From: a virus
Direction: 5' to 3' (one strand)
Virus record (IMG/VR): IMGVR_UViG_3300025294_000001
Length of the DNA: 62,157 bases
In this document: piece by piece, positions 9,194 through 60,986 of the stretch
Layout: the number at the start of each line of letters is the position of its first letter
Numbering within the stretch: the stretch's first letter is position 1
Translations under genes and position numbers: made by a program
Notes under the pieces: model-generated
The model's input: the letters and a program-made list of their open reading frames with translations, nothing else
What the model was told of the DNA's origin: nothing
Databases searched by the model: none

Positions 9194-10729
9194 ATGGACT
9201 TGAAAGACCTATTTGTCAAGGGTGAATACTTCCCACTAACTGACCATGAAAACCGTATTGTTCGATATATCCGAAATGATAAGTTAGCTAAAGGTGACCA
9301 CGCTGACGTATTTAGAAGTACAGCAGAAAAGCATGAGTTCTATATTGGTAGTAACTTTGCTGGATTAATTACACGTAAATCAAGTGACTTCTTATTTGGT
9401 GAAGTTCCAGTGATCTCAAGTGGTAAAGATAATAAATCAAAGGAACAAGAGACACTTGACCGTATTACTCAGTTAAATGCTATGAATCGCTTAAACTATC
9501 AGCAAGCATTAACTTGTTCTATTATGGGAGACGCATTTTACAAGGTTCGTTTTGGACAAGAGTATGCTGGGGCATTCCCTGAATCATATGACCCTAAACG
9601 TATCATTGTTGAGGCTGTAGACCCTAAGAAAGTGTATCCTCAGACTTCACCGTTCGATAAGTCAAAGATTGTTGCCTTTCATATTGCCGAGGCAGTTCAG
9701 GACGGAACTAGTGACGACTGGACGTTGTACGTGGAAAGTCACTATGCAGGAAAGATCGTTTACCGTCAATTTGATTTAGATGTATTCCGCACAGACCGTT
9801 TCGGTAATGTAGAATTATTCAAAATCGGTAACGAATTACCTGAGGGATATGAAGAAGAAAAGACCGGAGTTCCTGTTCCTTTAGTAGTACACATTGCTAA
9901 CTACAATGACGGTATCGACTGGAAAGGTCAAGATGATATTAGCGAACACTTATCATTATTTGACGAGATTAATAACCGCTTATCTCAAATCGGTTCTATT
10001 TTAGACAAACACGCTGACCCACCAATTGCCGTTCCTACTGGACTATTACAGGACGATGGTGAAGGTGGTACTTACTTCCAAGTAGCTATGAATAAAGTAT
10101 TTGAGGTAATGGGTAAAGACGATATTGTACCGCAATATATTTCAAACTCAAACCCACAATTAGACCAGGCATTTAAAGAATTAGAAATGCTATTAGAGTT
10201 CCTGTTAAGTGCTACTGAGATTCCAGCCGTTGCTATTGGTCTGAAAGACTCAGGTACAAGTGGTAACTCAGGTCTTTCTATTAAATGGCGAATGAACTCG
10301 TTACTGGCTAAGATTAACCGTAAACGTCAATTCTTTGAAGACGGTCTTAAACGTGTCTACATGATAGCACAGATGTTAGAACAGTATGCTGACCCTTCTG
10401 TATCAAAACACGAAATCGTAGTTCCTACAATCAAATTTAACGATGGATTACCACAAGATGATACTGAAATTGCAAACCGTATGGCTATTCGTACAAACGG
10501 CACTCAGACATTATCTCAGAAAACAGCGTTAATGATTATGGACGGTTTAAGTGAAGAAGAGGCACAAGCTGAGATTGACCGTATCAATGAAGAGAAGGAA
10601 ACGGCAATGAGTATGGTTGCTGAACCTTCTATCTTCAATGAAGAGGACAATACTGACGTTAGTACTGATACTAATACTAAAACTGATACTGAACCTAAAG
10701 AAGATACTAAGAAGGAGGAAAAAGAATAA
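9194..10729 (+). CDS. portal protein
   Basis: 511-aa ORF immediately after terL, with an acidic T/D/E-rich C-terminal tail. Call rests on position and size. Confidence 0.75.
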   Translation: MDLKDLFVKGEYFPLTDHENRIVRYIRNDKLAKGDHADVFRSTAEKHEFYIGSNFAGLITRKSSDFLFGEVPVISSGKDNKSKEQETLDRITQLNAMNRLNYQQALTCSIMGDAFYKVRFGQEYAGAFPESYDPKRIIVEAVDPKKVYPQTSPFDKSKIVAFHIAEAVQDGTSDDWTLYVESHYAGKIVYRQFDLDVFRTDRFGNVELFKIGNELPEGYEEEKTGVPVPLVVHIANYNDGIDWKGQDDISEHLSLFDEINNRLSQIGSILDKHADPPIAVPTGLLQDDGEGGTYFQVAMNKVFEVMGKDDIVPQYISNSNPQLDQAFKELEMLLEFLLSATEIPAVAIGLKDSGTSGNSGLSIKWRMNSLLAKINRKRQFFEDGLKRVYMIAQMLEQYADPSVSKHEIVVPTIKFNDGLPQDDTEIANRMAIRTNGTQTLSQKTALMIMDGLSEEEAQAEIDRINEEKETAMSMVAEPSIFNEEDNTDVSTDTNTKTDTEPKEDTKKEEKE

Positions 10730-11091
10730 TGGCACTTACAGAATTGCAAAAGAAAGCCGTTTTAATTCAAATTGAACACCCTGAAATTTCTCAGCAAGCA
10801 CTAGCTGAGGAATTAGGGGTACATCGTAATACTATTGGTAACTGGAATCGTAATAAAGAGTACATCGAGTATAAGAATGATTTAGCAATGGACGTTCACA
10901 AATCGTTCCTAGCTGATACTCTTAAAATCTTGCGTACTAAAACGCTAGACCCACATGCACGAGGACATTCACGTTACTTAGAAATGGCTTTAAAAACTTA
11001 TGGTGTACTTACTGAGAAATCAGAACAAACTGTCACTGTTAAAGAAGAGAAGTCAGAGAAAGACTTACTTGCTGAACTAATGGAGGACTAG
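10729..11091 (+). CDS. HTH DNA-binding protein (possibly small-terminase-like)
   Basis: N-terminal HTH: ISQQALAEELGVHRNTIGNWNRN. ATGA-type coupling to the portal gene. Confidence 0.4.
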   Translation: MALTELQKKAVLIQIEHPEISQQALAEELGVHRNTIGNWNRNKEYIEYKNDLAMDVHKSFLADTLKILRTKTLDPHARGHSRYLEMALKTYGVLTEKSEQTVTVKEEKSEKDLLAELMED

Positions 11092-11106
11092 AAAGGTGTG
11101 AGGTAA

Positions 11107-12030
11107 ATGAATGAGTTTGAACAAGTACCTGAAACGTATGAGGCTGATAACCAAGAGTTTGACGCCTTATATGTTATGGCATGGTTAATGGTTATTCAGG
11201 CATTAATGAAACTATTACGTTTGCCTCAGGCTACTACTAGTACACAAATGTTACAAATGGAACGTCAAGTAAATACTGAGGTAAGGGCTATATTTACTAA
11301 CCTTGAACGTAAGGCTGTAAATATGGCTACTACTAAAGTAACTGAGGCTTATATGGAAGGCGTCTCTTATTCTCGTACAGCGAAAGCACAAGAAAGTAAA
11401 TTGATTGAGGTTAAGGGTAAGGACTTAAATGACAGTCATAAGCAAAGGCTAAATAAGATGATTAGTCAAACACAAAGTGATTTATTAAAGGCTACTCATA
11501 ATACTCAAAACAATGTGAAGCAATTAGTTAGAACTGTGGTTTCTAAAGAGATCAGTGGGACAGGGTATGGCGGTAAGATTGGTAAGCAGAAACACATGGC
11601 AGCTAGAATTGAAAAACAATTAAGAAAACAATTTATAGAGGCTGGAATTAAGGACTGTGACGTTGCAATAATTGGTCGTGATAAAAGAAAGTGGAAACTC
11701 AAAACTTATAGTTCGATGGTCACACGCACGAAAATGAATATGGCTTATATTGATGCTATTCGTGAAGAGGCGTTACAAGATGGTTCTGACTTAGCTATCA
11801 TTTCTACTAAACCTGATACGGCTGACGAATGTAAAAACTATGAGGGCATGATTATTTCATTAAATGGCTTAACGGCTGGTTATCTTACTTATGATGAAAT
11901 CAAACAATCAAAGGCTTGCTTCCATCCTAATTGTGGTCACTTTGTAAGACCTGTAGGCGGTATTGATTGGATACCTAAGAATCTACTGAAAATACATGAG
12001 AAACAAATGAGTAAGTATAGGGGCAATTAG
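11107..12030 (+). CDS. head morphogenesis protein (SPP1 gp7 / Mu F-like)
   Basis: Lies after the portal gene. C-terminal CFHPNCGHFVRP resembles the conserved HPNC motif of this family. Confidence 0.65.
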   Translation: MNEFEQVPETYEADNQEFDALYVMAWLMVIQALMKLLRLPQATTSTQMLQMERQVNTEVRAIFTNLERKAVNMATTKVTEAYMEGVSYSRTAKAQESKLIEVKGKDLNDSHKQRLNKMISQTQSDLLKATHNTQNNVKQLVRTVVSKEISGTGYGGKIGKQKHMAARIEKQLRKQFIEAGIKDCDVAIIGRDKRKWKLKTYSSMVTRTKMNMAYIDAIREEALQDGSDLAIISTKPDTADECKNYEGMIISLNGLTAGYLTYDEIKQSKACFHPNCGHFVRPVGGIDWIPKNLLKIHEKQMSKYRGN

Positions 12031-12174
12031 TTTCTAATCGGCTTAAAATTAACATCATTTTACGATATATGAAAAAAGTTTTTATTTTCACCTGTAAAAA
12101 GTGGGTGTTTTAAGAACATGTATATTAGAAAGAACAATAAGGCGGTCACGATAATTCGTGGTCGCTTTTTCTAT

Positions 12175-12250
12175 TGGGGTGTAACTCAGTTGGTAGAGTA
12201 ACTGGCTGTTAACCAGTAAGTCGTAGGTTCAAGTCCTACCATCCCAGCCA
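12175..12250 (+). tRNA. tRNA-Asn(GTT)
   Basis: Hand-folded cloverleaf: acceptor TGGGGTG/CATCCCA, anticodon stem ACTGG/CCAGT, loop CTGTTAA, T-loop TTCAAGT, encoded CCA. Confidence 0.8.
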
Positions 12251-12251
12251 T

Positions 12252-12403: not shown

Positions 12404-12444
12404 TTGTAATAACCTTGTGAGTGCCTTAGGACAAACTCTCATAT

Positions 12445-12539
12445 GGAAAGTTGTCAGAGTGGCTTATTGTGATTGGTTGCTAACCAATTAGGGCGATTAA
12501 TAAAAACCCTCACAGGTTCGAATCCTGTACTTTCCTCCA
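12445..12539 (+). tRNA. tRNA-Ser(GCT), class II
   Basis: Anticodon stem ATTGG/CCAAT, loop TTGCTAA, 23-nt variable arm (stem AGGG/CCCT with a 13-nt loop), T arm ACAGG-TTCGAAT-CCTGT, encoded CCA. Confidence 0.7.
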
Positions 12540-16165: not shown

Positions 16166-16573
16166 ATGGCAACAGGACAAAAAATTGCTGGTGTTGACAT
16201 TCTCGTAAAAGTCGGTTCACCTGCTATCGCTATCGGTGGACAGTCAGGCTGTACGATTAACCGTTCAATGAACGTAATTGAGACAACAGATAAAACAAGT
16301 AACGGATGGGTTACTAAGATCGGTGGAATTAAAGAATGGTCTACTGAGTTAGATTCATTCATGGTAATTGGAGACGCTGGTTATAAAGCGTTAAGCGACG
16401 CATTTAAGAATCGTACTGAAATTGATGTAGAGGTTGCAATTGGTGGCATTACTTACAAAGGTAAAGCATTACTATCTGACTTCCCTATTGAAGCACCACA
16501 AGACGATGCTGTTACATTCACTATCACTTTAGAAGGTACAGGAGAGTTACTAGAAACAACAGTACCAGCTTAG
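16166..16573 (+). CDS. major tail protein
   Basis: 135-aa ORF directly upstream of the frameshifted chaperone pair and the tape measure gene. Confidence 0.6.
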   Translation: MATGQKIAGVDILVKVGSPAIAIGGQSGCTINRSMNVIETTDKTSNGWVTKIGGIKEWSTELDSFMVIGDAGYKALSDAFKNRTEIDVEVAIGGITYKGKALLSDFPIEAPQDDAVTFTITLEGTGELLETTVPA

Positions 16574-23052: not shown

Positions 23053-26000
23053 ATGGCGGTTATCACACAAGGACAAATCACTCTATACGAGGTATGGGAC
23101 GGACAACAAGGTATTAAAGGGGACAAGGGTGATAAAGGAGATAAAGGTGACCAAGGACTACAAGGTATTCAAGGTGGTGTTGGTGCTGATGGAAAAACTT
23201 ATTACACTTGGATTAAATACGCTGATACACCAACAACAGGAATGAGTGACTTACCAACTGGTAAATCTTATATGGGTATCGCCTATAACAAAACAACAGC
23301 GACGGAAAGCACGAACTACAATGACTACTCATGGTCATTAATCCGTGGTGACAAGGGTGACACTGGTGAACGTGGTTTGCAAGGATTACAGGGGGCTAAA
23401 GGTGACCAAGGGATTCAAGGTAACATGGGGATTCCAGGGATGCCCGGAACGTCTTCTTATACTCACATTGCTTACTCAACTAGTGCTGAGGGTTCAACTG
23501 GATTCTCAGTAAGCGACCCTGTAGGTAAAACGCATATTGGTATGTACGTTGACCAAACGGCTACGGACTCTACTGACCCTAAGAAATACAAATGGACTCT
23601 TATTAAGGGTGCTGACGGTTCTCAGGGTATTCAGGGACAAGCTGGTGCTGATGGTAAGACACCTTACTTCCATACAGCTTACGCTACTAACTCAAACGGT
23701 ACAGCTGGGTTTTCTACTACTGATGCAACAGGTAAAACATATATTGGTACTTATACTGATTATGTTTCTGCTGATTCAACAGACCCAACTAAGTACACAT
23801 GGATGTTAATTAAGGGAGATAAAGGAGACAAGGGTGACCAAGGGGTTCAAGGTATTCAGGGTGTGGCTGGTAAGGATGGTACTACTACTTACACATGGGT
23901 AAAATATGCTACTTCTTCTACTGGTGCTAACATGAGTGACTTACCTGATGGAAAGACTTACATCGGTTTAGCATACAACAAGACAACGCCTACTGAATCT
24001 ACTGTAGCCACTGATTACCAATGGGCTTTAATTCAAGGTGCAAAAGGGGATACAGGCTTAACTGGTTCTGCTGGTACTAATGGTAAAGACGGTATTACGT
24101 ATTACACATGGTTGAAATATGCTGATACGCCTACTACTGGTATGTCTGATTCACCAACTGGAAAAACCTACATGGGTATTGCTTACAATAAGACTACTGC
24201 AACAGAAAGCACTAACTATGCTGACTATAGCTGGTCTTTAATTAAAGGGGATACAGGGGCAACAGGAAGTACAGGTGCTAAGGGTGACCAAGGATTACAA
24301 GGAATTGCAGGCCCGAAAGGTGCGGACGGTCAAACAACGTACACATGGGTTAAGTACGCTGATGATGAATTAGGTAACGGTATGTCTGATTTACCTGACG
24401 GTAAAAGATATTTAGGACTTGCTTACAATAAAACAACTGCAACTGAGTCTACAACTAAGACTGATTATTCATGGTCACCATTGTATGACAATGTTCAAGT
24501 TGGTGGGCGTAACTTACTGTTACTATCAGGTAAAACATTTAATACAACGGACTACTTAATTAACCAATATACATTATCTGAGGACTTTGTTGTTGGTCAG
24601 GAATACACGTTTGTTATTAAAGGTACTGTTCCTGCTGGACAGAAGTTTGGTATTTGGATGAATGGCGGTTCTAACAATGTTGGTTACGCAACAACAACAT
24701 ATGTTAACGGTGTTACTTTTGTAACGTTTAAAGCTATTGCAACAACGTCAGGTAATGAGAGACGCCTTAACCTTTACAACTTCCCACAGAACACTACACA
24801 GGCAACAGTGGAATGGGTTGCACTGTACAAAGGTAATGTTCCTATGGACTATGTACCTACCCCTGAGGACTTAAATATAGGTGGTCGTAACTGGGTTTTA
24901 GGAACTGGAACACCTAAGAGTATAACTGGTACTAACACAGCAAACCAAACTGTGAATATCTATGACTTTGTAGGTAAGGATAGTACACCTATTCTTAATA
25001 CAGATATTGTAGTTTCATTTGATTGGGAGGTTACAGGGACTACAACGCCTACTGGTACATTGTACATGCAAGGAAGTAACCCTTATCCGTTAATTGCTGA
25101 CAGAATCACTTTCTCAGCTTCTAACTTAAAAGGACATTACTCTAAGGCTACAACTAAAATTCCTGCTGGTAAATTTGCATCGGTTAACATGAGACTAGAT
25201 AACGTAACAGTGGGTGCTGTTGTTACTATCTCTAATTTCAAGATTGCAACTGGAAACGTAGAAACAGGCTGGTCACCTGCACCTGAGGACGCACAATCAG
25301 GCGTAGATTCTGCTTTGGCTTCTATTTCTGATTTAGCAAGTGATTCACTGTTAACAGCATTGGAAAAGCGTACTTTAAAGAAAGAGTGGGACGGTATCGT
25401 TGCTGAGAAACCAACACTGGAAGCACAGGCAACAACTTACAGTATCACTACTGAGAAGACGAATTTCACAAATGCTTACAACACGTTAAACACTTTCATT
25501 ACACCATTGCTTTCTAATTTAACTGTTACAAGTTCGGCTGACGGTAATACTCTTAGAACTAACTTTAAGAACTATTACAGCACGAAAGCACTTCTTTTAA
25601 AGAAGATAACTGATACAGCCGATACATTCATTGACAATAAAGCTGACACAACTACTGTTACACCAATTAAGAACGCTGTTGAGGGCTGGACTATTGGACA
25701 GATTAACGGTAAACCTGCAATGAATGGTGACATGATTCAGAAGGATACGATCTTAGCAAGCCGTTTAGCGGTCGGTAACTTTGAAAACTTATTCACAAAT
25801 GGTTCTGCTGAGTATGGAAACATTGGATGGGACGCACACCCTCAGTGGTCTATTGTAAATAGTACATCTAACTCGTATAGCGGTTTATACCACTTCAAAG
25901 GGCTACACGGTGCTTCTACAAACTCTGAGTTTTATGATAGCAATGTTATACAAGTACGTGCTGGTGAGAAGTACTACATGGAAGGTTACTTCAAGTTAGA

Positions 26001-27936: not shown

Positions 27937-28776
27937 ATGAAGTATGATTCTCGTAACCGAACTAACTTAAACAAGCTAGGTGACCGTTCTAAGGTACTAG
28001 CTTACAAGTGGTATCAATACTGCTTAGACCACGGAATTGAAGTTTTAATTTATGAAACTATCCGTACTGTGGAACAACAACGTGAAAACGTAAATAAAGG
28101 TGCTTCCCAAACAATGAAGTCATATCACATTGTAGGACAAGCCCTTGACTTTGTACCAATCAAATCTAATGGCTTAGAAGACTGGAACGGCTACAATAAA
28201 GAACCGTGGGCTTCTGCTATCCGTTACGCTAAACAGATTGGTATTGAATGGGGTGGAGACTGGAAAGGCTTTGTTGACAGCCCTCACTTACAGTTCAATT
28301 TAAACGGCTATGGCACAGATACATTTAACGGCAAAGGTTCAGCACCATCTACGCCTTCAACTGGTACTGGTACTAGTACTAATGTTGGTAATGGTATCGG
28401 TGTTGCTACTGTAACTGCTGATGTATTAAATGTTCGTTCTGCACCTAGTACTTCTGCTACTATCGTGAAGAAAGTTAAGCAAGGTGAAGCATATGAAACA
28501 TTCGGCTATAAAGATGGTTTCCTTAACGTAGGAGGTAACCAGTGGATTAGTGCTGAGTTTGTTTCATTCGTACCTAAAGAACAGCCAAAGCCAAAACCTG
28601 AATACAGCGTAGGCGTTATTACAGGTGATGTGTGGTTACACAGCACACCTGATTTTAATGATTCAAGCCGTGTACGTGTCCTGAAAAAAGGCGAGTCGTA
28701 CAAGGTTTGGGGTGAAGCTAATGGCATGTATGCTATTGGTGGATACGTCTCTAAGAAATATATGAATCTACAATAA
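27937..28776 (+). CDS. endolysin: M15 (VanY-type, L-Ala-D-Glu peptidase-like) domain plus two SH3b domains
   Basis: SYHIVGQALD...SPHLQF zinc-peptidase motifs, a T/G/S linker, and two SH3b-like repeats (VLNVRSAPS..., VWLHSTPDF...). Confidence 0.85.
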   Translation: MKYDSRNRTNLNKLGDRSKVLAYKWYQYCLDHGIEVLIYETIRTVEQQRENVNKGASQTMKSYHIVGQALDFVPIKSNGLEDWNGYNKEPWASAIRYAKQIGIEWGGDWKGFVDSPHLQFNLNGYGTDTFNGKGSAPSTPSTGTGTSTNVGNGIGVATVTADVLNVRSAPSTSATIVKKVKQGEAYETFGYKDGFLNVGGNQWISAEFVSFVPKEQPKPKPEYSVGVITGDVWLHSTPDFNDSSRVRVLKKGESYKVWGEANGMYAIGGYVSKKYMNLQ

Positions 28777-28818
28777 CTTTAATATTAGTACTAGTATTAA
28801 TACCAAAGTTAGTATTGG
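28775..28818. repeat. palindromic-hexamer repeat block A
   Basis: AACTTTAATATTAGTACTAGTATTAATACCAAAGTTAGTATTGG, between the endolysin and holin genes. Confidence 0.7.
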
Positions 28819-30940: not shown

Positions 30941-31822
30941 ATGACAGACAGCTTATTTTCAGTATCACATGACCAAGAACTTAATTTAGGTAACGGCAAA
31001 ACTATAAACAATGTGTATGTACGTGTTTATACGTCCCTCTTTACGTCAGGATTGGTCGCTAGAATGGGTTCTAATAGGTTTACTACCCTAATGGCTTTAG
31101 CCTCTTATATGGACGCACAGGGCGAATGTTACCCTACTCAAATTCAATTAGCTGATGCAATTGGTGTTCACAAGAATACTGTAAACAAATATATCAATGA
31201 ATTACTAGATTTTACAATTGACGATAAACCTCTTGTTACTAGAACAAAGATAAATCGTGGTCAAGGTAAAATATCAAGCTATTACAAGATTCACCCACTA
31301 TCTCAATTAGCTAAGTTCAGTGGAACGATTGAAGAGGTTAATACCAAAACTACTGATTCGCTAATCACAAAGGGAAGTGATGAACTAATCCCTACCAACT
31401 GTGACGTAATAAAAGTCACTAATAATAATCAATTAATAAATAATACTGACGTATTAGAAGTCACTAATTCTAGTAACGCTATTAAGTACTTTCAACAGGT
31501 ATACAGAGAGACATATGACGTTAACTATACAGTGAGTAATTACGGACGTGAAGGTAAGATCATAAAAGATAAAGTACTAACGCCTTATCCTGAAATAGCT
31601 AAAGAGATTATTAGATTAGCTGTTACAAAGTATGACGAGTTATTCAAGAATGCACGTTACCCACGACCTAGCGTTGCTATGTTTAGTTGGGCTGTTAATC
31701 AAATCATTCCAATGATTGAAGAGGAACAACAGGTGATTGAAGTGGCTTCACAGTCAAACGAATTAGAGGACGAGGCTGAAAAACGCATGTTAGAACGTAT
31801 GAACAAGTTAGGAGGTATGTAA
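30941..31822 (+). CDS. replication organizer / initiator-like wHTH protein (DnaD-like)
   Basis: FTTLMALASYMDAQGECYPTQIQLADAIGVHKNTVNKYINELLDF wHTH. Directly upstream of the loader and helicase genes. Confidence 0.55.
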   Translation: MTDSLFSVSHDQELNLGNGKTINNVYVRVYTSLFTSGLVARMGSNRFTTLMALASYMDAQGECYPTQIQLADAIGVHKNTVNKYINELLDFTIDDKPLVTRTKINRGQGKISSYYKIHPLSQLAKFSGTIEEVNTKTTDSLITKGSDELIPTNCDVIKVTNNNQLINNTDVLEVTNSSNAIKYFQQVYRETYDVNYTVSNYGREGKIIKDKVLTPYPEIAKEIIRLAVTKYDELFKNARYPRPSVAMFSWAVNQIIPMIEEEQQVIEVASQSNELEDEAEKRMLERMNKLGGM

Positions 31823-33851: not shown

Positions 33852-33860
33852 TTTAAAGTT

Positions 33861-33897
33861 GGTACTGATACTGATATTGGTATTAGTACCTTTTTTA
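33861..33897 (+). terminator. rho-independent terminator built from palindromic-hexamer repeats
   Basis: Stem GGTACTGATAC/GTATTAGTACC (one G-U pair) followed by T6. Confidence 0.65.
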
Positions 33898-33899: not shown

Positions 33900-33936
33900 T
33901 GTCCCAAAATAAGTGATTAATGCAAGTAATTAATTG
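33900..33936 (+). promoter_or_regulatory. phage-specific promoter, class M, copy 5
   Basis: TGTCCCAAAA-N11-TGCAAGTAATTAATTG, 21-nt offset. Confidence 0.55.
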
Positions 33937-34305: not shown

Positions 34306-35239
34306 GGTCTATTATGACCTGAATGTAGATATTGCTGAGGAACTAGGGTATTACGATTGGCACAGGGCAAGACCTAAGGGAGAGGAAATGGTTGCATGTT
34401 CACCATTCCGTGACGAGTCGTCGCCTTCATTCTCTATCAATTTAGAAACTGGACTATGGATTGACTTTGGTTCTAACCATGATCTTTACGGTAGAGGTGG
34501 GTTAGTAACTCTATTATCATTCCTGAGAAATGAGACGCCCCTTGAAGTAGAGGATTACTTATTAGAGAAGTACGGTATAGATTTAAGCGACACGGATAAA
34601 CTTGAACTTAATGTTAACTTTGATACTAGTACTAAAGTTGATACTATTATTAGTACTGAGGATTACCAGCCGTATGCGTACCGTTCGCCTTACCTTGCTG
34701 GACGTGGAATAAGTGAGAAGGTGCAACGTGCTTTTAAGGTTGGTTATGATAGAAAGTCAAAGGCGGTAGCTTTAGCGTGGCATGATGTAAAAGGGAACAT
34801 GGTTAATATCAAGTTCCGTTCTATCAATTCAAAAATATTCTACTACTACCCAACAGGGCAACAGCTAAGAAACCACATTTACGGAATGCACTTCATTTAC
34901 AAGTTGAAACCTGACACTGTTTTTCTAGTGGAATCAGAAATAGACTGTTTGTATTTATGGTCGATTGGCGTTCCTGCAATTGCATTAGGTGGAAGTAAGA
35001 TCAGTGAGAAGAGAAAGCAACTTTTATTACGATGTCCTGCAAAGCGAATTGTTCTAGCAACGGACAATGACAAAGTAGGTAACGAAATAAGGGATAAGGT
35101 TACTAAGTTACTAGTTGGGTACAAGGAACTATATGAGATTAAGATTCCTGAAAACTACAATGACGTGAACGATGTACCGCCTGAAATATTAAAAAGGGTT
35201 TGCGACAATGCAACCCCTGTAAACTTAATACTATTCTAG
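34283..35239 (+). CDS. DNA primase (zinc-finger-like N-terminus plus Toprim domain)
   Basis: CSPFRDESSPSFSIN resembles the DnaG-type zinc-binding motif. Toprim acidic motifs VESEID and ATDNDKVGNE. ATG 34283 follows the SD GGTGGGG. Confidence 0.75.
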   Translation: MITIYRNEVYYDLNVDIAEELGYYDWHRARPKGEEMVACSPFRDESSPSFSINLETGLWIDFGSNHDLYGRGGLVTLLSFLRNETPLEVEDYLLEKYGIDLSDTDKLELNVNFDTSTKVDTIISTEDYQPYAYRSPYLAGRGISEKVQRAFKVGYDRKSKAVALAWHDVKGNMVNIKFRSINSKIFYYYPTGQQLRNHIYGMHFIYKLKPDTVFLVESEIDCLYLWSIGVPAIALGGSKISEKRKQLLLRCPAKRIVLATDNDKVGNEIRDKVTKLLVGYKELYEIKIPENYNDVNDVPPEILKRVCDNATPVNLILF

Positions 35240-37487: not shown

Positions 37488-37545
37488 AACTTTAATATTA
37501 ACTTTAAATTTGCCATTAACTTTAATATTAGTACTAACTTTAATC
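37488..37545. repeat. palindromic-hexamer repeat block C
   Basis: AACTTTAATATTAACTTTAAATTTGCCATTAACTTTAATATTAGTACTAACTTTAATC. Confidence 0.7.
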
Positions 37546-37572
37546 TTATAAAATCAATCGGAGGTAATGTAT

Positions 37573-44464: not shown

Positions 44465-44801
44465 TAATCAAGTTCTATTTGATAAAGGATATGAAACGCT
44501 TGCTACTAAATTTGAGGCTGTAATGGACAAAGCACCTGAATTAGAAAGTGAACTTACTGACCTAGTAATTTTCGTTACAGATGAACTTGACACTGGTGAT
44601 GTACGTGCTGAGGATAATTACGAACGTGGTCGTGAAGATGGTCGAGACGAGGGTTACCAAGAAGGTTATGACGATGCTGAATTTGAGTACTCAGATAAGT
44701 ACGATGAAGGCTTTGAAGACGGACGTTCTGAGGGTTACGAAGAAGGCTATCAAGAAGGATACGAGTCAGGTCGTGAAGAAGGCGAAAGCATTTTACACTA
44801 G
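44451..44801 (+). CDS. highly acidic repeat protein (EGY repeats)
   Basis: RGREDGRDEGYQEGYDD...EGFEDGRSEGYEEGYQEGYESGREEGE. D/E-rich throughout. Confidence 0.55.
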   Translation: MRFYDNQVLFDKGYETLATKFEAVMDKAPELESELTDLVIFVTDELDTGDVRAEDNYERGREDGRDEGYQEGYDDAEFEYSDKYDEGFEDGRSEGYEEGYQEGYESGREEGESILH

Positions 44802-44829
44802 TACTGGTACTAATATTAATACTAACTTT
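44797..44829. repeat. palindromic-hexamer repeat block D
   Basis: ACTAGTACTGGTACTAATATTAATACTAACTTT, overlapping the stop of ORF 44451. Confidence 0.7.
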
Positions 44830-44891: not shown

Positions 44892-45200
44892 ATGGATATG
44901 GTTCAATTCTTTTCAATGCTTCAATTAATTGGTGGGGTAATTCTTTCAGTCGGATACATTCCGCAAATCATTAAAATGATTAAAACTCGTTCGGTAGATG
45001 ATTTCAGTAAAATGTATTTAGGTTCTATTTTCTTTGGTATCGTGTTAATGGAAATGTACGCTGTTTATATGTATCTTGTAATTGATGTAGCTGAAATGCA
45101 ATCATTCTTCATTACTAATACAGCCTCTACTATTTTAAGTGGTACTGAGTTTGTATTACTATTAATGTTCGCAACTAAGAAACCTAAGAAACTTAAATAG
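44892..45200 (+). CDS. PQ-loop (SemiSWEET-like) three-TM membrane protein
   Basis: 102 aa, three hydrophobic segments. TM1 carries YIPQIIKMIKTRSVDDFS, matching the PQ-loop signature. Confidence 0.55.
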   Translation: MDMVQFFSMLQLIGGVILSVGYIPQIIKMIKTRSVDDFSKMYLGSIFFGIVLMEMYAVYMYLVIDVAEMQSFFITNTASTILSGTEFVLLLMFATKKPKKLK

Positions 45201-45210
45201 TATTAAAATT

Positions 45211-45247
45211 GACGTTGGTACTGATACTAGTACTAACGTCTTTTTTT
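45211..45247 (+). terminator. rho-independent terminator built from hexamer repeats
   Basis: Stem GACGTTGGTAC/GTACTAACGTC (one G-U pair) followed by T7. Confidence 0.7.
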
Positions 45248-45291: not shown

Positions 45292-45320
45292 TAAGGCAAA
45301 TGAGATAAGGGGTGACTAAA

Positions 45321-46695: not shown

Positions 46696-46726
46696 AACCC
46701 ACTGGCTTATTTGCTGGTGGGTTTTT
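46696..46726. terminator. bidirectional terminator between convergent genes
   Basis: 10-bp stem AACCCACTGG/CTGGTGGGTT flanked by an A-run and a T-run. Overlaps the 3' end of the reverse-strand gene. Confidence 0.65.
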
Positions 46727-47129
46727 CTGCTTTCTTTTTAAGTGTTCTCTTACTTCTCTTTCTAATTGACATTAAGTAGTCGTCCTGTTCAGGTAACATA
46801 CTACCACATAACTCTATTAGTTGTTGGTCTTGCTTCATAATTTCCTCAGTTTCAGGTGGCATAGTAAATTCAATTAAATCATTTAAATCTGTAATTCTTA
46901 ATGTAACAGCTATCACTATTAAATGTGGAACGCTAATTGTAGTTCTTTTCATGTTAGCTAACTCAGACAGCGACGCTGTACGGATACCTGTTAAATGACT
47001 TAATTCAGTCATGCTTATTCCTCTATCTTTTAAAATTTCCCCTAACTTACATCTAACTGTAAAGTACGGAAACCTCTCTAAATTCTTCTTAACGTGGTCA
47101 GTCGTATTTTCATGCACTCTAACTATCAT
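46707..47129 (-). CDS. XRE/Cro-CI family HTH transcriptional regulator (repressor candidate)
   Basis: LGEILKDRGISMTELSHLTGIRTASLSELANMKR is a classic XRE HTH. One of only four reverse-strand genes. Its promoter contains the 16-bp palindrome. Confidence 0.7.
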   Translation of the reverse strand: MIVRVHENTTDHVKKNLERFPYFTVRCKLGEILKDRGISMTELSHLTGIRTASLSELANMKRTTISVPHLIVIAVTLRITDLNDLIEFTMPPETEEIMKQDQQLIELCGSMLPEQDDYLMSIRKRSKRTLKKKAEKPTSK

Positions 47130-47171
47130 ATGTATTACCTCACTTAATTAATTAGTTTTCCTTACGACTCT

Positions 47172-47400: not shown

Positions 47401-47942
47401 TGAAAATTGCACTGGTCGGAAAAATGAGATCAGGAAAGGATACGGTAGCGAAATTCTTTATTGATAATGAAGATGCAAACCAAATAGCGTTCGGTGATGA
47501 AATTAAAAAGATAGCACGACGTTACTTCCCTGAAATTGTAGCAAAGGGCAAACCAAGAGAGTTATATCAAGTAATTGGACAAGAAATGAGAAAGATTGAC
47601 CCTGATGTGTGGGTTAAGGCTTTAGATAGAACATTAACAAATTTAATGGGTTATGGAGAAACAAGTTTTGTTATTTCAGATGTTCGGCAAATGAATGAAT
47701 ATCATTACTTGAAAGAAATGGGCTTCACAGTTATTAAAGTTGAGGCTGACGATGAATTACGAAAAGAAAGAATTTATCAGTCAGGTGATTTATTTGAACC
47801 TGAACATTTCTATCATGAGACAGAAACAACGGTTGAGGATATACCTTGTGACTACTTAGTAACTAATAATACAACATTGGCTGATTTATACGACCAAATA
47901 TTTTATATACACAATGAACTTAAAGAGGGTGAGAAAGTATGA
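47394..47942 (+). CDS. P-loop nucleotide kinase (dNMP-kinase-like)
   Basis: Walker A LVGKMRSGKDT near the N-terminus. About 180 aa. The start could instead be ATG 47400. Confidence 0.55.
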   Translation: MVMKIALVGKMRSGKDTVAKFFIDNEDANQIAFGDEIKKIARRYFPEIVAKGKPRELYQVIGQEMRKIDPDVWVKALDRTLTNLMGYGETSFVISDVRQMNEYHYLKEMGFTVIKVEADDELRKERIYQSGDLFEPEHFYHETETTVEDIPCDYLVTNNTTLADLYDQIFYIHNELKEGEKV

Positions 47943-48268
47943 CAAATAAATATGAACAAGCGTACAAGCTGGATACCGAAAGTGGTGTGACAGCTTTTTT
48001 AAATGATTACCCTAAACTAGCTGAGGCGAGATTTTATTCAAGTGATTTTACTATTAGTGATTTCTTACTGGACTTCCATTTCTCAGTTAATAAGGCATTA
48101 ACAGAAAGACAGCGACAAGTTATTGAATTAACTTTCTATAAAGATATGAGACAGGTTGACGTTGCGAGAGAACTTAATTTATCACAGCAAACTGTACAGG
48201 AACATACTCAGAAAGCTATTAAGAATTTAGCGACGTATCACATGATCTTAAAGGAACGAGGTGAATAG
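47939..48268 (+). CDS. sigma-70 region-4-like HTH protein (late-transcription factor candidate)
   Basis: LTERQRQVIELTFYKDMRQVDVARELNLSQQTVQEHTQKAIKNL fits the region 4.2 pattern. Only 109 aa. Confidence 0.5.
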   Translation: MTNKYEQAYKLDTESGVTAFLNDYPKLAEARFYSSDFTISDFLLDFHFSVNKALTERQRQVIELTFYKDMRQVDVARELNLSQQTVQEHTQKAIKNLATYHMILKERGE

Positions 48269-51848: not shown

Positions 51849-52517
51849 ATGAGGAAAGCAATAACAACTTTAGCATTAATGGGTGGAATTTTATTTGTAG
51901 GTGGACAAGATGCGTTTGCTTATGAGGTGAAGAGTGGAGATACTATGTCAAAGGTGGCTGAGACTCAGGGAATGAGTTTACATACATTAGTAAGCCTTAA
52001 CCCACAGGTTTCTAACATTGACCGTATCTTTGTAGGACAAACTTTACACACTGACGCAACAGGCGTTGAACAGGAAACAACTAAAGTTGACACTAATATT
52101 AATACTGATACTAGTACTAATGATGATGTCATGACTGCTTTAAATATTAGCGGTGACGACTTTGATTTATTATCTAGATTAGTAGAGGCTGAGGCTGGTA
52201 TTGAACCTTTCGAGGGTAAAATAGCTGTAGCTAATGTAATCTTAAACCGAGTTGAGTCAGACCAATTCCCTAATACAATTGAGGGTGTTATTTACGAGGC
52301 TGGACAGTTTCAACCTGTCAGAAATGGACACATAAATAAAGTACCTTCTGAGGAATCGAAAGAGGCTGTACGAAAGGCTTTATCAGTCAATAGAAGTCTT
52401 GGAGGAAACTCTTTATACTTCTATGATCCACGTTATAGCGACGAGTCGGCAAAGCGTTGGTTTAATACTTTAGAGACAACTATGACAATCGGAAATCACG
52501 TATTCAAAACAGAATAG
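51849..52517 (+). CDS. secreted LysM plus SleB-type cell-wall hydrolase
   Basis: Signal-like N-terminus, LysM (YEVKSGDTMSKVAETQGMSLHTLVSLNP), T/D/N linker, and SleB/Hydrolase_2-like LSRLVEAEAG...VANVILNRV...GQFQP. Confidence 0.7.
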   Translation: MRKAITTLALMGGILFVGGQDAFAYEVKSGDTMSKVAETQGMSLHTLVSLNPQVSNIDRIFVGQTLHTDATGVEQETTKVDTNINTDTSTNDDVMTALNISGDDFDLLSRLVEAEAGIEPFEGKIAVANVILNRVESDQFPNTIEGVIYEAGQFQPVRNGHINKVPSEESKEAVRKALSVNRSLGGNSLYFYDPRYSDESAKRWFNTLETTMTIGNHVFKTE

Positions 52518-52526: not shown

Positions 52527-52562
52527 AAGGACAGGGGATGTATTCCCTTGTCCTTATTTTTT
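52527..52562. terminator. bidirectional terminator
   Basis: 11-bp stem AAGGACAGGGG/CCCTTGTCCTT, with an A-run upstream and a T-run downstream. Lies between convergent genes. Confidence 0.75.
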
Positions 52563-53723
52563 ATTTAAATTATCTGCACAAGCTGTAAGGATTGAAGTTA
52601 TACCACCCTCACCATTTCCACTAAATTGTATTAGTCCTGTATTAGATAGGAATGCACCATATTTACCCCAATAATCAATATCTATTTCCCATTTAACTTT
52701 ACTAATAGCCTCAAATATTTCTTTATCTTCCCTGTGTAAATCATGTCTAGCATGATGAATAAACTTTGCTATACCCTTCAAAGCATAATTCTTCTCTAAG
52801 ACATATTTCCCCTTTGTATCTATATCAGGAGGTAAGTTATAGAACATTTCATTTAGAGTATCATTTGTCTTTGTTTTAAACTCTAAATAATTATCCTCAT
52901 TGATAAAGTTATAATCCTTCTTATACTCATACCAGTACAATAACTTTGTAATAGCATATACAGTAGTTAGAAGAATTGTATTAGGGTTATTTGATTTAAT
53001 AGACATCTTATTAAATTCAATACCGTAATGTTTTAAATATCTATTTGACTCAGCAAGTTCCCTAGCTAGACGACTGAAAATGTCAGTCTGTGCTAATCGG
53101 ATAGTAGCGTTTCTAGATGGTCGCTGTGCTAAGTTATTTAAATCATGGAATAACTGTTTTTCCTCTTCTTCAGTTAGGTTGTTAAAAATAACGATAGGTA
53201 TAACCATTTCTTTTAGATTCTCTAATAAGTCTCTATATTTGTTTCTAACAGCTTTATCTTTAACCTTGTTAATTCTACCCTGTAACTCTCTAATAGCCTC
53301 AGATATACCGTAAAAACGGTGCTGTCCATCATTTATAGATAGCTTTGAGTTTCTAGTGTCTATAGCTACCTTCTTTTGTGATTCATCATAGAAGATGTTT
53401 CCTCGTGCTGTAACTGTAATCCCTGAGAAAAATCTCATACTATAAGGATTCTCAACGCCTGATAAAACATACATTTTAATTTTTGAAACACGTCTAGGTA
53501 CTATATCCCTTTGAACGTCAGGGAATACTTGTAGGAAGTCCATTAAGTCTTTAAATTTCAAGACTGTTGTAAAGACTTCTCTTCCAAACTGTTTCCCCTT
53601 AATTCCGCTAATAGTTGCCATATGACTCAAAGAAAGATCATGTTCTCGTTTTGCTTTTAACATAGCCTCAACCTCGTGTCTTGATGGATTACTTAACATA
53701 TCTAGTTCTAACGCTTTCCCCAA
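52554..53723 (-). CDS. DGQHR-domain (DndB-like, ParB/Srx-fold) protein
   Basis: Motifs DVQRDI, INDGQHRF and QLFHDLNN in the order typical of DndB/DGQHR proteins. TTG start 7 nt after the SD AGAGGTG. Confidence 0.7.
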   Translation of the reverse strand: MGKALELDMLSNPSRHEVEAMLKAKREHDLSLSHMATISGIKGKQFGREVFTTVLKFKDLMDFLQVFPDVQRDIVPRRVSKIKMYVLSGVENPYSMRFFSGITVTARGNIFYDESQKKVAIDTRNSKLSINDGQHRFYGISEAIRELQGRINKVKDKAVRNKYRDLLENLKEMVIPIVIFNNLTEEEEKQLFHDLNNLAQRPSRNATIRLAQTDIFSRLARELAESNRYLKHYGIEFNKMSIKSNNPNTILLTTVYAITKLLYWYEYKKDYNFINEDNYLEFKTKTNDTLNEMFYNLPPDIDTKGKYVLEKNYALKGIAKFIHHARHDLHREDKEIFEAISKVKWEIDIDYWGKYGAFLSNTGLIQFSGNGEGGITSILTACADNLNKK

Positions 53724-54580: not shown

Positions 54581-54645
54581 ATTAGTACTAACATTAGTAT
54601 TAAATTTAGTATTGACATTAATATTAGTTATGGTATTATTAATCT
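54581..54645. repeat. palindromic-hexamer repeat block F (overlaps the parA promoter)
   Basis: ATTAGTACTAACATTAGTATTAAATTTAGTATTGACATTAATATTAGTTATGGTATTATTAATC. Confidence 0.7.
54612..54639 (+). promoter_or_regulatory. early host-type promoter of the parA operon
   Basis: TTGACA-16 nt-TATTAT, then TCTCGTAAGG. Embedded in a hexamer-repeat block. Confidence 0.6.
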
Positions 54646-54692: not shown

Positions 54693-55499
54693 ATGACAGC
54701 AAAAGTTATCTGTATCAACAATAACAAAGGTGGCGTTCTAAAGACGACAACTACTACGAATTTGGCTGGGGTTTTAGCTAATCAAGGTAAGAAAGTTCTT
54801 ATTATCGACGCTGATAATCAGGCTAACGTTTCATTAGCTTTTGGTTTGATTCCTGAGGATTTCAAACTAACTATTTATGACGTTCTGACTGGTAGTGTTC
54901 CTGCTGAGGAATGTATAGTGGAAATTAAAGATCATAAAAACATTCATATTTTACCTTCTAATAGAGAACTGGTTTCTTTCGAGTTTAAAGTGATTGGCAA
55001 TAGAGACAAATTCCCTGAACCATTTTATTTAATGGTGGATACTTTAGACCGCTTAAAAGAACAATATGACTATATTCTAATTGATACACCACCGAGTTTA
55101 GGTGTAATGAATGGTAATGTTTTTACATACAGTGATTATGTTATAATTCCATTTGTACCTGAATTATTTTCAATGCGTTCACTGGTTGAGGTAGTTCGTA
55201 CTATTAGAGAATTTAAAGATGTTCATAATCCTGATTTAGAAATTTTAGGGGTTCTAAGAACTATGGTTGAATATCGCACCAATGTTCATAGCGACGTAAT
55301 TCAAGAAACAAATAGATACGCAAGTCAAAACGATGTGCATGTGTTTGATACGGTTATACCTAAGTCAGCACAATTTACAAAGTCAGTTCTATATAATCAA
55401 TTACCAGCAACGTTATTACCTGAAAAGAAACGTGACAAGGCTGATTTATATTATGAGTTATGGGCTGAAATTGAAGGGTATCTTGAAGGAGGTAATTAA
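54693..55499 (+). CDS. parA: ParA/Soj-family partition ATPase
   Basis: Deviant Walker A NNNKGGVLKTT, plus DADNQAN and LIDTPPS motifs. 268 aa. Confidence 0.85.
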   Translation: MTAKVICINNNKGGVLKTTTTTNLAGVLANQGKKVLIIDADNQANVSLAFGLIPEDFKLTIYDVLTGSVPAEECIVEIKDHKNIHILPSNRELVSFEFKVIGNRDKFPEPFYLMVDTLDRLKEQYDYILIDTPPSLGVMNGNVFTYSDYVIIPFVPELFSMRSLVEVVRTIREFKDVHNPDLEILGVLRTMVEYRTNVHSDVIQETNRYASQNDVHVFDTVIPKSAQFTKSVLYNQLPATLLPEKKRDKADLYYELWAEIEGYLEGGN

Positions 55500-55501: not shown

Positions 55502-55783
55502 ATGTCAACATTAGCTGGAGAAGGTCAAGGTAGAGGGCGTAAAAACCGCCCTAAGGTTACCTTTGACAATGTATCAGGTGAAACAGTTAAAACTAAAATT
55601 GATGAATTTTATGCACCTGTGGAAAAGATTGAGAAAAAACAAGTTTCTATATATTTAGATACTGACGTTATTTCTGCAATGGATAAATGGATTGATTCTT
55701 TACCTGAGAAGAAGAAGAAAGGGGCTAGAAGTGATTTAGTCAATAACTTCCTGAAACAAGTTTTCAACATTAGACAAGGTTAA
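55502..55783 (+). CDS. small centromere-binding-protein candidate (ParG-like, C-terminal RHH)
   Basis: 93 aa, directly after parA. Basic disordered N-terminus, then KKQVSIYLDTDVISAMDKWI...RSDLVNNFLKQVF (strand-helix-helix). Confidence 0.55.
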   Translation: MSTLAGEGQGRGRKNRPKVTFDNVSGETVKTKIDEFYAPVEKIEKKQVSIYLDTDVISAMDKWIDSLPEKKKKGARSDLVNNFLKQVFNIRQG

Positions 55784-58471: not shown

Positions 58472-58501
58472 TTGACTTTACGATATACGGTAATATATAA
58501 T
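58472..58501 (+). promoter_or_regulatory. early host-type promoter with an embedded operator-like palindrome
   Basis: TTGACT, then a spacer containing TTACGATATACGGTAA (58478-58493), then TATAAT and TCTCGTAAGG. Confidence 0.65.
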
Positions 58502-59045: not shown

Positions 59046-59093
59046 TTAGTAGGTATTAATACTAGTACTAACTTTAGTGTTAAATTTAAATTT
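59046..59093. repeat. palindromic-hexamer repeat block G
   Basis: TTAGTAGGTATTAATACTAGTACTAACTTTAGTGTTAAATTTAAATTT, directly upstream of a -35 box. Confidence 0.7.
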
Positions 59094-59098: not shown

Positions 59099-59127
59099 TT
59101 GACAATCAAAAGTGTATCAATTATGAT
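59099..59127 (+). promoter_or_regulatory. early host-type promoter
   Basis: TTGACA-17 nt (ATCAAAAGTGTATCAAT)-TATGAT, then TTTACGTAAGGTAA. Confidence 0.75.
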
Positions 59128-59514: not shown

Positions 59515-59527
59515 AAAAATTTAAGTG

Positions 59528-59556
59528 TTGACAATCAAAAGTCTTACAGTTATGAT
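59528..59556 (+). promoter_or_regulatory. early host-type promoter
   Basis: AAAAAATTTAAGTG-TTGACA-17 nt-TATGAT, then TAACGTAAGGTAA. Confidence 0.75.
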
Positions 59557-59608
59557 AGATAACGTAAGGTAATAACAAAACAAAAACTAACTAAGTGAGG
59601 TAATCAAA

Positions 59609-59926: not shown

Positions 59927-59938
59927 AAAATTTAAGTG

Positions 59939-59967
59939 TTGACAATCAAATGTGTAACACTTATGAT
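59939..59967 (+). promoter_or_regulatory. early host-type promoter
   Basis: AAAAAATTTAAGTG-TTGACA-17 nt-TATGAT, then AAATGTAAGGTTAA. Confidence 0.75.
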
Positions 59968-60023
59968 AGTAAATGTAAGGTTAATCAAAACAAATAAAAA
60001 ACTAATTAAGGTAGGTAATTGAA

Positions 60024-60812
60024 ATGACAAACACTATGAGATTGATTGGCGTAGGCGAGGTAGAAGGAACACCAGCAAGTGAATTAAAAGTAGGCGATAT
60101 TACACGCTGGAACTACGGCGGTATCGAAAGAATTACAAGTATTGAATTTTCTAAAACTGGAAAGACAATCATTGTAGAAATTGAATACATGGACTATGAC
60201 AATCAAGTAGTTACTTCAAAAAGACAGTTCCGTGCTACACGTTTGGTAAACATTATCGGACGTGGAAACACTAGACTAACTGGAAAGTATAACTTTAGAA
60301 GTGAAGAAGAAGAAAACTTAGTAGCAAAGTATATGAGTAATCCAGTATTTAAATATGATGAAGTAGAAGAAGAAGAAGCACCTGTATTAGTTGAAACGGT
60401 TGAGGTGGTTGAAGAAGTTCAAGAGGAAACTGTTGAAATTAAGAAGGCACATTTTGAGTCTAAACCTTCTAACATTAAAGAAGTTAAAATGCGTGAAATT
60501 TCTTCTTATGACTCTTATGCTGTTGCGGAAACTATAGAATTAAACATAGTTGAGTTTTATGATCTTTGTGATAGCCTTCTTTCGAGTAGGGAATATTTGG
60601 AAGGTAAAGGTGGTACATACTCAACAACAGAACCTGAGGGTTGTGAAGACGTGGACAACTTCTTTGACCTAACACCAGCCCAACAAAAGGAATGGAGAAA
60701 AGGGGCTTACCGTAATTGTGTGAAGGTTACATGTTCTAGTGCTACTTTTGATTTACTTATTGACCCACAGGGGTACAACTATGGGCGTTACGTTGCAATA
60801 GAATATAAATAA
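60024..60812 (+). CDS. hypothetical early protein with an acidic E/V linker
   Basis: 262-aa ORF behind the conserved leader. Confidence 0.6.
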   Translation: MTNTMRLIGVGEVEGTPASELKVGDITRWNYGGIERITSIEFSKTGKTIIVEIEYMDYDNQVVTSKRQFRATRLVNIIGRGNTRLTGKYNFRSEEEENLVAKYMSNPVFKYDEVEEEEAPVLVETVEVVEEVQEETVEIKKAHFESKPSNIKEVKMREISSYDSYAVAETIELNIVEFYDLCDSLLSSREYLEGKGGTYSTTEPEGCEDVDNFFDLTPAQQKEWRKGAYRNCVKVTCSSATFDLLIDPQGYNYGRYVAIEYK

Positions 60813-60930
60813 GGGGGGCGTTGCCCCTTTAATCCTTCATATAGTGATTAATGAAATCTAAAGTACCTGACATATGTGATTAATAGAAAACACGCTTATA
60901 ACAGCCTTTAAACAGCTATAATCACATATG

Positions 60931-60986
60931 TTAGTGACTATTAATATTAGTACTAGTATTAACTTTAGTACTAACTTTAAATTTAA
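60931..60986. repeat. palindromic-hexamer repeat block H
   Basis: TTAGTGACTATTAATATTAGTACTAGTATTAACTTTAGTACTAACTTTAAATTTAA, directly upstream of a -35 box. Confidence 0.7.

Follow-up and report, generated by a model that had tools for sequence, protein, structure and literature searches.

Here we report that the DNA of IMG/VR virus record IMGVR_UViG_3300025294_000001, a stretch of 62,157 nt (the window; all positions are coordinates of this whole stretch), contains twelve arrays of unspaced, near-palindromic hexamers that are dispersed between genes and in frame inside genes. We propose that these arrays are probably the cognate DNA sites, centromere and operator together, of a type Ib partition module that consists of parA and the gene for a 93-aa adaptor protein. 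The window is a 62-kb phage-plasmid of the Bacillus cereus group. Its arrays are non-random, their positions and hexamer grammar are conserved among relatives, and they are associated and co-vary with the partition module.

Hexamer arrays in the window

An earlier note on this DNA, made without database searches, had described blocks of chained hexamers between and within genes, and all twelve sites that it listed are present in the sequence. The repeat unit is a hexamer and not a triplet, as the middle base of successive ANT or GNT triplets alternates between purine and pyrimidine to give the grammar A-R-N-N-Y-T. Base by base, the consensus reads A(79%) R T(62%) A(64%) Y T(95%), that is ARTAYT, with AACTTT/AAAGTT in addition; the commonest hexamers are AACTTT/AAAGTT, AGTACT, AATATT, AGTATT/AATACT and AAATTT, and the coding copies are also rich in GATACT and GGTACT. 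Each of the twelve delimited arrays comprises 4-9 unspaced hexamers in grammar.

The comparison with a shuffled genome that had been suggested as a check gave a large excess by each of three measures, using 40-200 dinucleotide-preserving shuffles. Three successive ARTAYT units with at most two mismatches were matched 28 times against 0.36 expected, runs with at least seven of ten consecutive ANT triplets formed 8 clusters against 0.26, and runs of at least five consecutive grammar hexamers formed 11 clusters against 0.07. All but one of the 28 ARTAYT matches, the exception being at 1067, fall inside 11 of the 12 blocks; the block at 33855 has no such match and is abundant in GNT triplets. Microsatellites consist of a near-perfect single unit at unconserved positions, and the arrays instead comprise 22 distinct hexamers (counted across the intergenic arrays), occupy syntenic sites and accept substitutions that preserve the grammar. 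They also differ from mobile palindromic repeats, such as repetitive extragenic palindromic (REP) sequences, miniature inverted-repeat transposable elements (MITEs) and Rickettsia palindromic elements (RPEs), in having 4-9 hexamers in variable order and no shared termini.

In IMG/VR (L033-L150), viral contigs, giant-virus (GVMAG) ones among them, often contain perfect (AGTATT)n/(AATACT)n hexanucleotide microsatellites that are unrelated to the arrays of the window. Perfect repeats of this kind, (AGTATT)n and (AATATT)n, for the most part from giant viruses, dominated a scan of viral contigs for ARTAYTx3+ARNNYT and made it uninformative; among the matches listed (119 loci), none encodes the adaptor or a ParA of the window's type.

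Eight of the arrays are intergenic. The array that covers the -35 to -10 region of the parA promoter (54584-54637, eight of nine hexamers in grammar) is the proposed primary centromere and autoregulatory operator; the promoter embedded in it (54612-54639, +) reads TTGACA, 16 nt, TGnTATTAT. Two further arrays of seven hexamers, 59052-59093 and 60943-60984, end just upstream of the -35 boxes of promoters at 59099-59127 and 60990-61018. The -35 boxes at 54612, 59099 and 60990 stand where the earlier note had placed them. The array at 28775-28816 (seven hexamers) separates the stop codon of the endolysin gene from the ribosome-binding site that serves the next small open reading frame (ORF). Of the others, 33855-33890 (six) lies immediately 3' of the DnaB-like helicase gene, 37488-37547 (nine of ten, mainly AACTTT/AATATT) upstream of ORF 37567, 44800-44829 (five) before the PQ-loop gene and 45199-45240 (seven) 3' of it. 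Seven arrays are located away from promoters.

The proposed partition module

The gene parA (54693-55499, +) encodes a Walker-type partition ATPase of 268 aa with matches to AAA_31 (1e-51, residues 3-184), to CbiA (residues 6-236) and to the ParA-like partition protein family phrog_164 (7e-58). It has no further domain, and thus no helix-turn-helix (HTH) domain; its size is that of type Ib (~200-300 aa). Three nucleotides past its stop codon begins the ORF of the adaptor, our candidate centromere-binding protein (55502-55783, +), in an arrangement that is the same in relatives and in the Priestia filamentosa plasmid pBEH5. The locus thereby combines an HTH-free ParA of the right size, a small downstream adaptor gene and a tandem-repeat array over the operon promoter, as is characteristic of type Ib systems.

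The 93-aa adaptor has an N-terminal tail, LAGEGQGRGRKNR, and an invariant C-terminal region, KKQVSIYLDTDVI...GARSDLVNNFLKQVFNIRQG, predicted to form a strand and two helices. Among its homologues the N-terminal half is variable and opens with a conserved, Arg-rich basic motif of the LAGxGxGR type, and the C-terminal 45 residues are almost invariant (KKQVSIYLDTDVI.A...GKGAKSDLVNNFLKQVFNIRQG). No family in Pfam, PHROGs or NCBIfam matched the adaptor above threshold, a tblastn search against phages found no match, and neither Pfam nor PDB searches gave an omega-like match. The domain is likely to be a ribbon-helix-helix (RHH) fold. Consistent with this, BrnA_antitoxin, an RHH family, matched 17 of 18 adaptor members below threshold (at best 1.7e-5 and 25.5 bits against a cut-off of 26.1), and sub-threshold matches to RHH_1 and RHH_5 in other members begin exactly at the predicted strand. 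Polar and hydrophobic residues alternate in the segment KQVSIYL, and AlphaFold2 models place an extended segment and two helices after a disordered N-terminal half, with predicted local distance difference test (pLDDT) values of 84-93 in the domain.

A profile search of genome contigs with the adaptor alignment returned one locus, an orphan fragment in Priestia iocasae that has neither parA nor arrays. The orphan homologues, at L020 10001-10285 in the Lysinibacillus fusiformis chromosome and at L019 10001-10168 in P. iocasae, keep the invariant C-terminal domain of the adaptor, and the former stands beside a resolvase gene in a prophage-like region.

The phage-plasmid and its relatives

The first and last 127 nt of the window (1-127 and 62031-62157) are identical, which indicates that the element, 62,030 bp long, is circular or was assembled as a circle. 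Its G+C content is 36.6%. On it lie a siphovirus-type morphogenesis module and the genes of a CI-like repressor, a small serine resolvase and ParA, together with replication genes of its own: an initiator, a helicase loader, a DnaB-like helicase, a Toprim primase and a DNA polymerase. Related or near-identical contigs of 57-62 kb were found in the B. cereus group, Neobacillus niacini, B. licheniformis, B. altitudinis and the B. subtilis group. This phage gene content, combined with relatives of similar size of which three are closed plasmids, identifies the window as a phage-plasmid. A megablast search with 10 kb of the window against GenBank phages gave no match, so that there is no close GenBank phage at the DNA level, and the nearest large-terminase subunits are 40-51% identical. 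Between the SleB-like hydrolase gene and parA lies a DndB-family gene (52554-53723, -) that is present in L001, L022 and L023 and absent in L008, L010 and the B. licheniformis plasmid, and we therefore regard this position as a variable cargo slot adjoining the par locus.

Association and co-variation of arrays with the adaptor

An array covers the parA promoter in every adaptor-positive replicon examined, pBEH5 included. Strict arrays number 11, 7, 4, 4 and 2 in adaptor-positive replicons, against about 0.03 in shuffles, and a gap-tolerant count of hexamer chains gave 5 arrays in L022 and 6 in L023. No array was found in adaptor-negative relatives of similar gene order, namely the integrase-carrying phage PK2, Clostridium phage FA67, phBC6A51 and the IMG/VR contig L027; the ParM-type phage-plasmids pBWB403 and pCPC216_2 of C. 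perfringens have none and one, respectively. In these two (L030 28031-29065 and L031 29147-30347) a ParM/StbA module replaces parA and the adaptor and does so at a different genome position, which shows that partition modules are exchanged within this phage lineage (PMC8026635, Group 2). The run in pCPC216_2 (L031 1844-1879) is in frame, reads GATATT AATACC AATACT AATATT AACATT GATGTT and encodes the peptide DINTNTNINIDV at the C-terminus of an HTH protein of the phBC6A51 family; single hexamer runs can thus arise without the adaptor.

The comparison that depends least on phylogeny is that with pBEH5 (56.7 kb), a non-phage plasmid which in tblastx shares with the window parA (69% identity) and the adaptor only. 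It has 5 relaxed arrays, against 2.9 expected by chance, and two of the five belong to the 1.2-kb par locus: the first (AGTACT AATGTT AAATTT AATACT) is upstream of parA, and the second is read in frame within the part of the adaptor gene that encodes the N-terminal half.

The hexamers themselves vary with the adaptor. Its predicted strand reads KKQVSIYLD in one set of genomes (type 1) and TVQR[ST]IRID in adaptors of the B. subtilis group (type 2), which were found by profile search. Arrays in type-1 genomes are 47% TA-centred (ARTAYT) and 15% AAAGTT/AACTTT; in type-2 genomes the corresponding values are 9% and 45%, AACGTT and AACACT are also common, and the syntenic positions are retained. Hexamer preference is associated with strand type (chi-square P = 3e-12).

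Conservation of position and grammar

Where close relatives can be aligned with the window (85-98% identity), the arrays stay but their hexamers are swapped within the family, for example AGTACT for AACTTT or AATATT for AAAGTT. Across seven array/relative pairs, 35 substitutions inside arrays cost 2 grammar hexamers against 9-13 expected at random (P at most 3.5e-4), from which it follows that the grammar is constrained and the exact sequence is not. The array at 59052-59093 is conserved in L001 and L007, and that at 60943-60984 has accumulated 13 substitutions in L007 with all seven hexamers still in grammar. The L025 copy of the array at 37488-37547 is identical though its flanks differ by 9%, and at 44800-44829 relatives carry other hexamers of the family in place of those in the window.

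Conservation extends to the B. licheniformis plasmid NZ_CP154900.1, whose DNA cannot be aligned to the window and whose primase protein is 72% identical. Of the ten arrays on that plasmid, six occupy places syntenic with window arrays: one follows the helicase gene, two lie in the linkers of the primase and the SleB-like hydrolase, one is upstream of the small ORF that precedes the polymerase, one stands where the PQ-loop gene ends and one covers the parA promoter. The post-helicase array is found at 12443-12496 in B. licheniformis and also in L024/L025, the counterpart of array 37488 at 16454-16519 in B. licheniformis, and those of array 45199 at 24181 in B. licheniformis, 30143 in B. altitudinis and 1321 in L152.

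Arrays inside coding sequence

Four arrays (all +) are read in frame, in genes whose identities had been given correctly: portal, endolysin (M15 peptidase and SH3), Toprim primase and a SleB-like cell-wall hydrolase (LysM and Hydrolase_2). The array at 10649-10708 (nine of ten hexamers in grammar) encodes the C-terminal tail of the portal, NTDVSTDTNTKTDTEP, and that at 34598-34657 (nine of ten) the interdomain linker of the primase, KLELNVNFDTSTKVDTIIST; the latter block is where it had been seen but starts 20 nt before the noted coordinate 34618. The six hexamers at 52083-52118 encode the linker KVDTNINTDTST between the LysM and hydrolase domains of the SleB-like protein, and the weakest member, at 28363-28386, consists of four (GGTACT GGTACT AGTACT AATGTT) in the linker between the catalytic and SH3 domains of the endolysin. 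The excess of T at the third codon position that had been reported for these copies goes beyond codon bias (10/13, 16/17, 12/14 and 13/15 against about 50% expected, P = 4e-3 to 8e-5 each), in a test that is biased upward because the blocks were chosen for that property.

The primase linker is informative as to origin. It has the same length in the adaptor-negative PK2, FA67 and L027, where it is written with ordinary codons, and in adaptor-positive genomes it reads AAACTT GAACTT AAxxTT and the like, with an otherwise rare CTT Leu codon kept in three genera and the grammar retained in B. licheniformis and B. altitudinis. The equal length in array-free relatives indicates that nothing was inserted and that a tolerant linker already in place was re-written. 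Within the array of the SleB-like hydrolase, the window and L007 differ by 7 substitutions that change 5 residues and leave six of six hexamers in grammar. In type-1 genomes the linker of this hydrolase reads TKVDTNINTDTST or TKTNTDVNTNTST, and in type-2 genomes KVNKKVNTKVKVNTNVNT or NVNTKVKVKVDSNVNT, so that xT repeats in the one and KV/NV repeats in the other, at the same place, track the local hexamer preference. Coding arrays are not universal, as the SleB array is absent in L008 and L022; relatives have further in-frame arrays in the adaptor gene (L023 and pBEH5) and at the C-terminus of the ribonucleotide reductase (RNR) large subunit (L008).

A broader reading, which we hold tentatively and put at somewhat under an even chance, is that the DNA code of the adaptor is written genome-wide, coding sequence included, so that the specificity of a partition protein sets the composition of linkers in the portal, endolysin, primase and SleB-like hydrolase and, in relatives, in the adaptor and the RNR large subunit. 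The switch in the adaptor strand would then have re-written arrays and linkers alike, and the dispersed arrays would form a whole-genome segregation scaffold, possibly with silencing in the prophage state, rather than a single centromere.

Proposed mechanism and alternative explanations

By analogy with characterised type Ib systems, we infer that the adaptor dimerises through its probable RHH domain and that the dimers bind runs of unspaced A-R-N-N-Y-T hexamers cooperatively, one dimer per hexamer. The Arg-rich N-terminal tail would stimulate the ParA ATPase, and the array over the parA promoter would be both centromere and autoregulatory operator. The other arrays, about eleven in number, may be additional loading sites, and those at promoters 59099 and 60990 possibly operators. 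Selection on these sites at the DNA level would have re-written tolerant protein linkers where arrays fall inside genes. The earlier note had listed a binding array for a phage protein as one of three possible roles, with the block at 54581 as the parA centromere and the product of ORF 55502 as the binder, and the comparative evidence supports that proposal.

Several observations weigh against this interpretation. The array-rich genomes all belong to one clade, which confounds the presence/absence comparison phylogenetically, and the co-variation of hexamers with the adaptor strand represents essentially one evolutionary switch, which makes it supportive and not decisive. The arrays of pBEH5 are short. 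The orphan adaptor homologues L020 and L019 have no parA and no arrays within 10 kb, and promoters similar to those with arrays, at 58472, 59528 and 59939, have none. A Foldseek search against PDB with full-length and C-terminal-domain models of the adaptor gave no significant match and no RHH structure, a result of the small size of the domain and its modelling as a monomer. PDB sequence and profile searches returned spurious designed-repeat proteins and a weak match to the RHH protein SSV E73 (E = 0.39), and the fold assignment is accordingly drawn from sub-threshold Pfam matches and secondary structure. Finally, characterised RHH arrays have a register of 7-9 bp, wider than the 6 bp seen here (PMC3074150, PMC3074162).

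Among the alternatives, the one that survives best, and which we nevertheless consider unlikely, is that the arrays are bound by some other protein, whether a host nucleoid-associated protein, the CI-like repressor (46707-47129) or the sigma-region-4-like protein (47939-48268), and serve as promoter-upstream or silencing sites unrelated to partition. Binding by the adaptor is something we infer, adaptor genes without arrays do exist, and A/T-rich phased DNA of the kind found just upstream of three -35 boxes can be an UP element. Set against this are the seven arrays away from promoters, the dependence of hexamer preference on the strand sequence of the adaptor and pBEH5, which has just parA and the adaptor in common with the window and yet carries arrays at its par locus. 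Arrays also differ from promoter to promoter in their phase with respect to the -35 box; this variability, along with the three array-free sibling promoters, led us to reject an UP element of fixed geometry.

We attach a lower probability, about half of that, to the view that the arrays are boundaries of recombination or module exchange, at which shared short sequences drive mosaicism among related phage-plasmids. Such a role had been suggested in the earlier note and found little support when breakpoints were checked. One homology breakpoint with L001, at 44808, falls within the array at 44800, whose hexamer content is reshuffled among relatives, and two more, at 45296 and 61020, are about 30-56 bp from arrays; these are 3 of some 14 breakpoints, no more than placement between genes would predict, and breakpoints and arrays are both intergenic by nature. 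The in-frame primase and SleB arrays are not at breakpoints, and exchange boundaries leave unexplained both the absence of arrays in ParM-type and integrating relatives and their presence at the par locus of pBEH5.

It is slightly less probable still that the arrays function as hairpins or at the RNA level, as terminators, attenuators or cruciforms of self-complementary hexamers. The terminator-like hairpins reported earlier are real: the stems at 33861-33890 (array 33855; folding z = -5.6 against shuffles) and 45211-45240 (array 45199; z = -6.0) are both followed by T-runs, and the near-palindromic hexamers permit these two arrays to serve also as terminator stems. A G+C-containing hairpin followed by a T-run is found in just these two of the twelve arrays, however, and apart from a third array with z = -4.6 the folding of the remaining nine does not surpass that of shuffles (z from +0.2 to -2.6), which led us to reject the hairpin as their unifying feature. 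Direct-repeat arrays of AACTTT, such as that at 37488 and most of those in type-2 genomes, are not self-complementary.

Replication iterons were set aside, as there is no concentration of arrays around the initiator gene (30941-31822) and the replicon of pBEH5 is unrelated. We give as little credence as to the hairpin reading to functionless low-complexity DNA arising from hexanucleotide slippage and T-ending codon bias: T-ending codons do make up about 50% for most amino acids in the window and many unrelated viral contigs have perfect (AGTATT)n microsatellites, but the arrays are heterogeneous and not unit repeats, are absent in syntenic relatives of similar composition, keep their positions across genera and their grammar through substitutions, and retain the rare CTT Leu codons of the primase array in three genera. 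The heterogeneity of the arrays, their synteny across genera and the lack of an insertion in the primase linker likewise argue against the suggestion of the earlier note that a slippage-prone sequence spreads into linkers.

Promoters and other repeats in the window

The sigma-70-type promoters at 59099, 59528, 59939 and 60990 are near-identical, reading TTGACAATCAAAAGTGTAT..TATGAT followed by CGTAAGGT. Only two of them have a full upstream hexamer array, and the other two retain a vestige, AAATTTAAGTGTTGACA.

A second repeat family has the form TGTCCTAA, about 15 nt, TGCAAGTACCTAAGTGTAA, and occurs at 4108, 5119, 6170, 30899, 35748 and 45277 (all +), with a degenerate copy near 33905. Its members lie 30-50 nt upstream of gene starts and often directly after a terminator, both array terminators included. 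This looks like a phage-specific promoter class, of which the reader is perhaps the sigma-region-4-like protein encoded at 47939-48268. A leader word, AAAACTAATTAAGT(T/G)AGG, directly precedes the ribosome-binding sites of six genes, at 694, 53985, 57363, 59999 and 61244 (+) and at 47148 (-). The 11-mer AAGATCATAAA, which contains GATC, is present in nine copies on both strands, in coding and non-coding DNA (505, 2659, 30585, 31556, 44229, 54928, 57347, 60556 and 61099).

Comparison with known systems

If the 93-aa protein binds the arrays, it would represent a new family of centromere-binding proteins, for which Pfam, PHROGs and NCBIfam have no model, with an unusually short (6-bp) near-palindromic recognition unit; the family occurs in Neobacillus and in the B. 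cereus and B. subtilis groups, on phage-plasmids of about 57-62 kb. The arrays would then constitute a natural code of partition and regulatory sites overlaid on protein-coding sequence and strong enough to set the composition of linkers. Around a dozen dispersed partition sites on a 62-kb replicon would bear on the number of centromeres needed by a ParA-driven cargo, and on a possible further role of the adaptor in silencing phage promoters while the element is a plasmid. On a practical level, the arrays could be a signature for this phage-plasmid family and its partition type.

The statement in the earlier note that no element of this kind had been described is too strong, as unspaced arrays of short repeats over promoters are the standard centromere and operator of type Ib systems (PMC3074150, PMC3074162). 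Omega of pSM19035, a protein of 71 aa with a disordered tail and an RHH domain, binds 7-10 unspaced heptads over three promoters, has six parS sites and is also a global regulator (PMC3074150). The window system resembles delta/omega in its small ParA, its adaptor (~70-90 aa in the two systems) with disordered N-terminal tail and C-terminal DNA-binding domain, and its several sites per replicon. It differs in having a 6-bp near-palindrome (ARTAYT, AAAGTT) where pSM19035 has the heptad WATCACW, in the lack of detectable similarity between adaptor and omega, in its approximately 12 sites, terminators and in-frame coding positions among them, and in its host element, a tailed phage-plasmid. Having neither the WATCACW heptad nor omega homology, the system may act like omega yet is no member of the inc18 omega regulon. 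The RHH fold of pCXC100 ParB was unpredictable from sequence, and successive dimers of that protein bind nine unspaced 9-bp repeats cooperatively (PMC3074162); in pCXC100 ParB and TP228 ParG, however, 9-bp repeats form a single array beside the operon, in contrast to the 6-bp unit and dispersed arrays of the window. Pairs of a type Ib ParA and an RHH adaptor have already been noted in other B. cereus plasmid prophages (PMC8026635). The prophage-plasmid N15 has four separate centromere sites rather than one array (PMC7205306, citing Ravin & Lane 1999), and is likewise a phage-plasmid whose partition protein has several centromere sites at separate places of the genome. SopB of N15 is a large HTH ParB (type Ia) with a single 16-bp palindrome per site, in contrast to the small RHH-like adaptor and multi-hexamer arrays of the window.

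Individual features of the arrays have parallels outside type Ib partition. KorB of RK2, a ParB homologue, has 12 operator sites round the replicon and also exerts global transcriptional control; it is an HTH ParB with a 13-bp palindrome, and its sites are not known to form tandem arrays or to lie in frame in coding sequence. The met boxes of MetJ are tandem, unspaced, near-palindromic units that each bind one RHH dimer and tolerate degenerate units, but they are 8 bp long and belong to a chromosomal repressor with no known role in partition. Rickettsia palindromic elements are repeats found both between genes and in frame within unrelated genes, but they are inserted units of defined length (100-150 bp), whereas the arrays of the window have no defined ends and a variable number of hexamers.

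Repeat arrays that serve type Ib partition systems as centromere and operator are therefore known already, the closest precedents being omega/parS of pSM19035 and, for dispersed centromeres, N15. What is new is the unannotated adaptor family, the 6-bp near-palindromic unit, the dozen or so arrays dispersed over a tailed phage-plasmid, and the in-frame linker arrays, in which selection on DNA sites would shape peptide composition.

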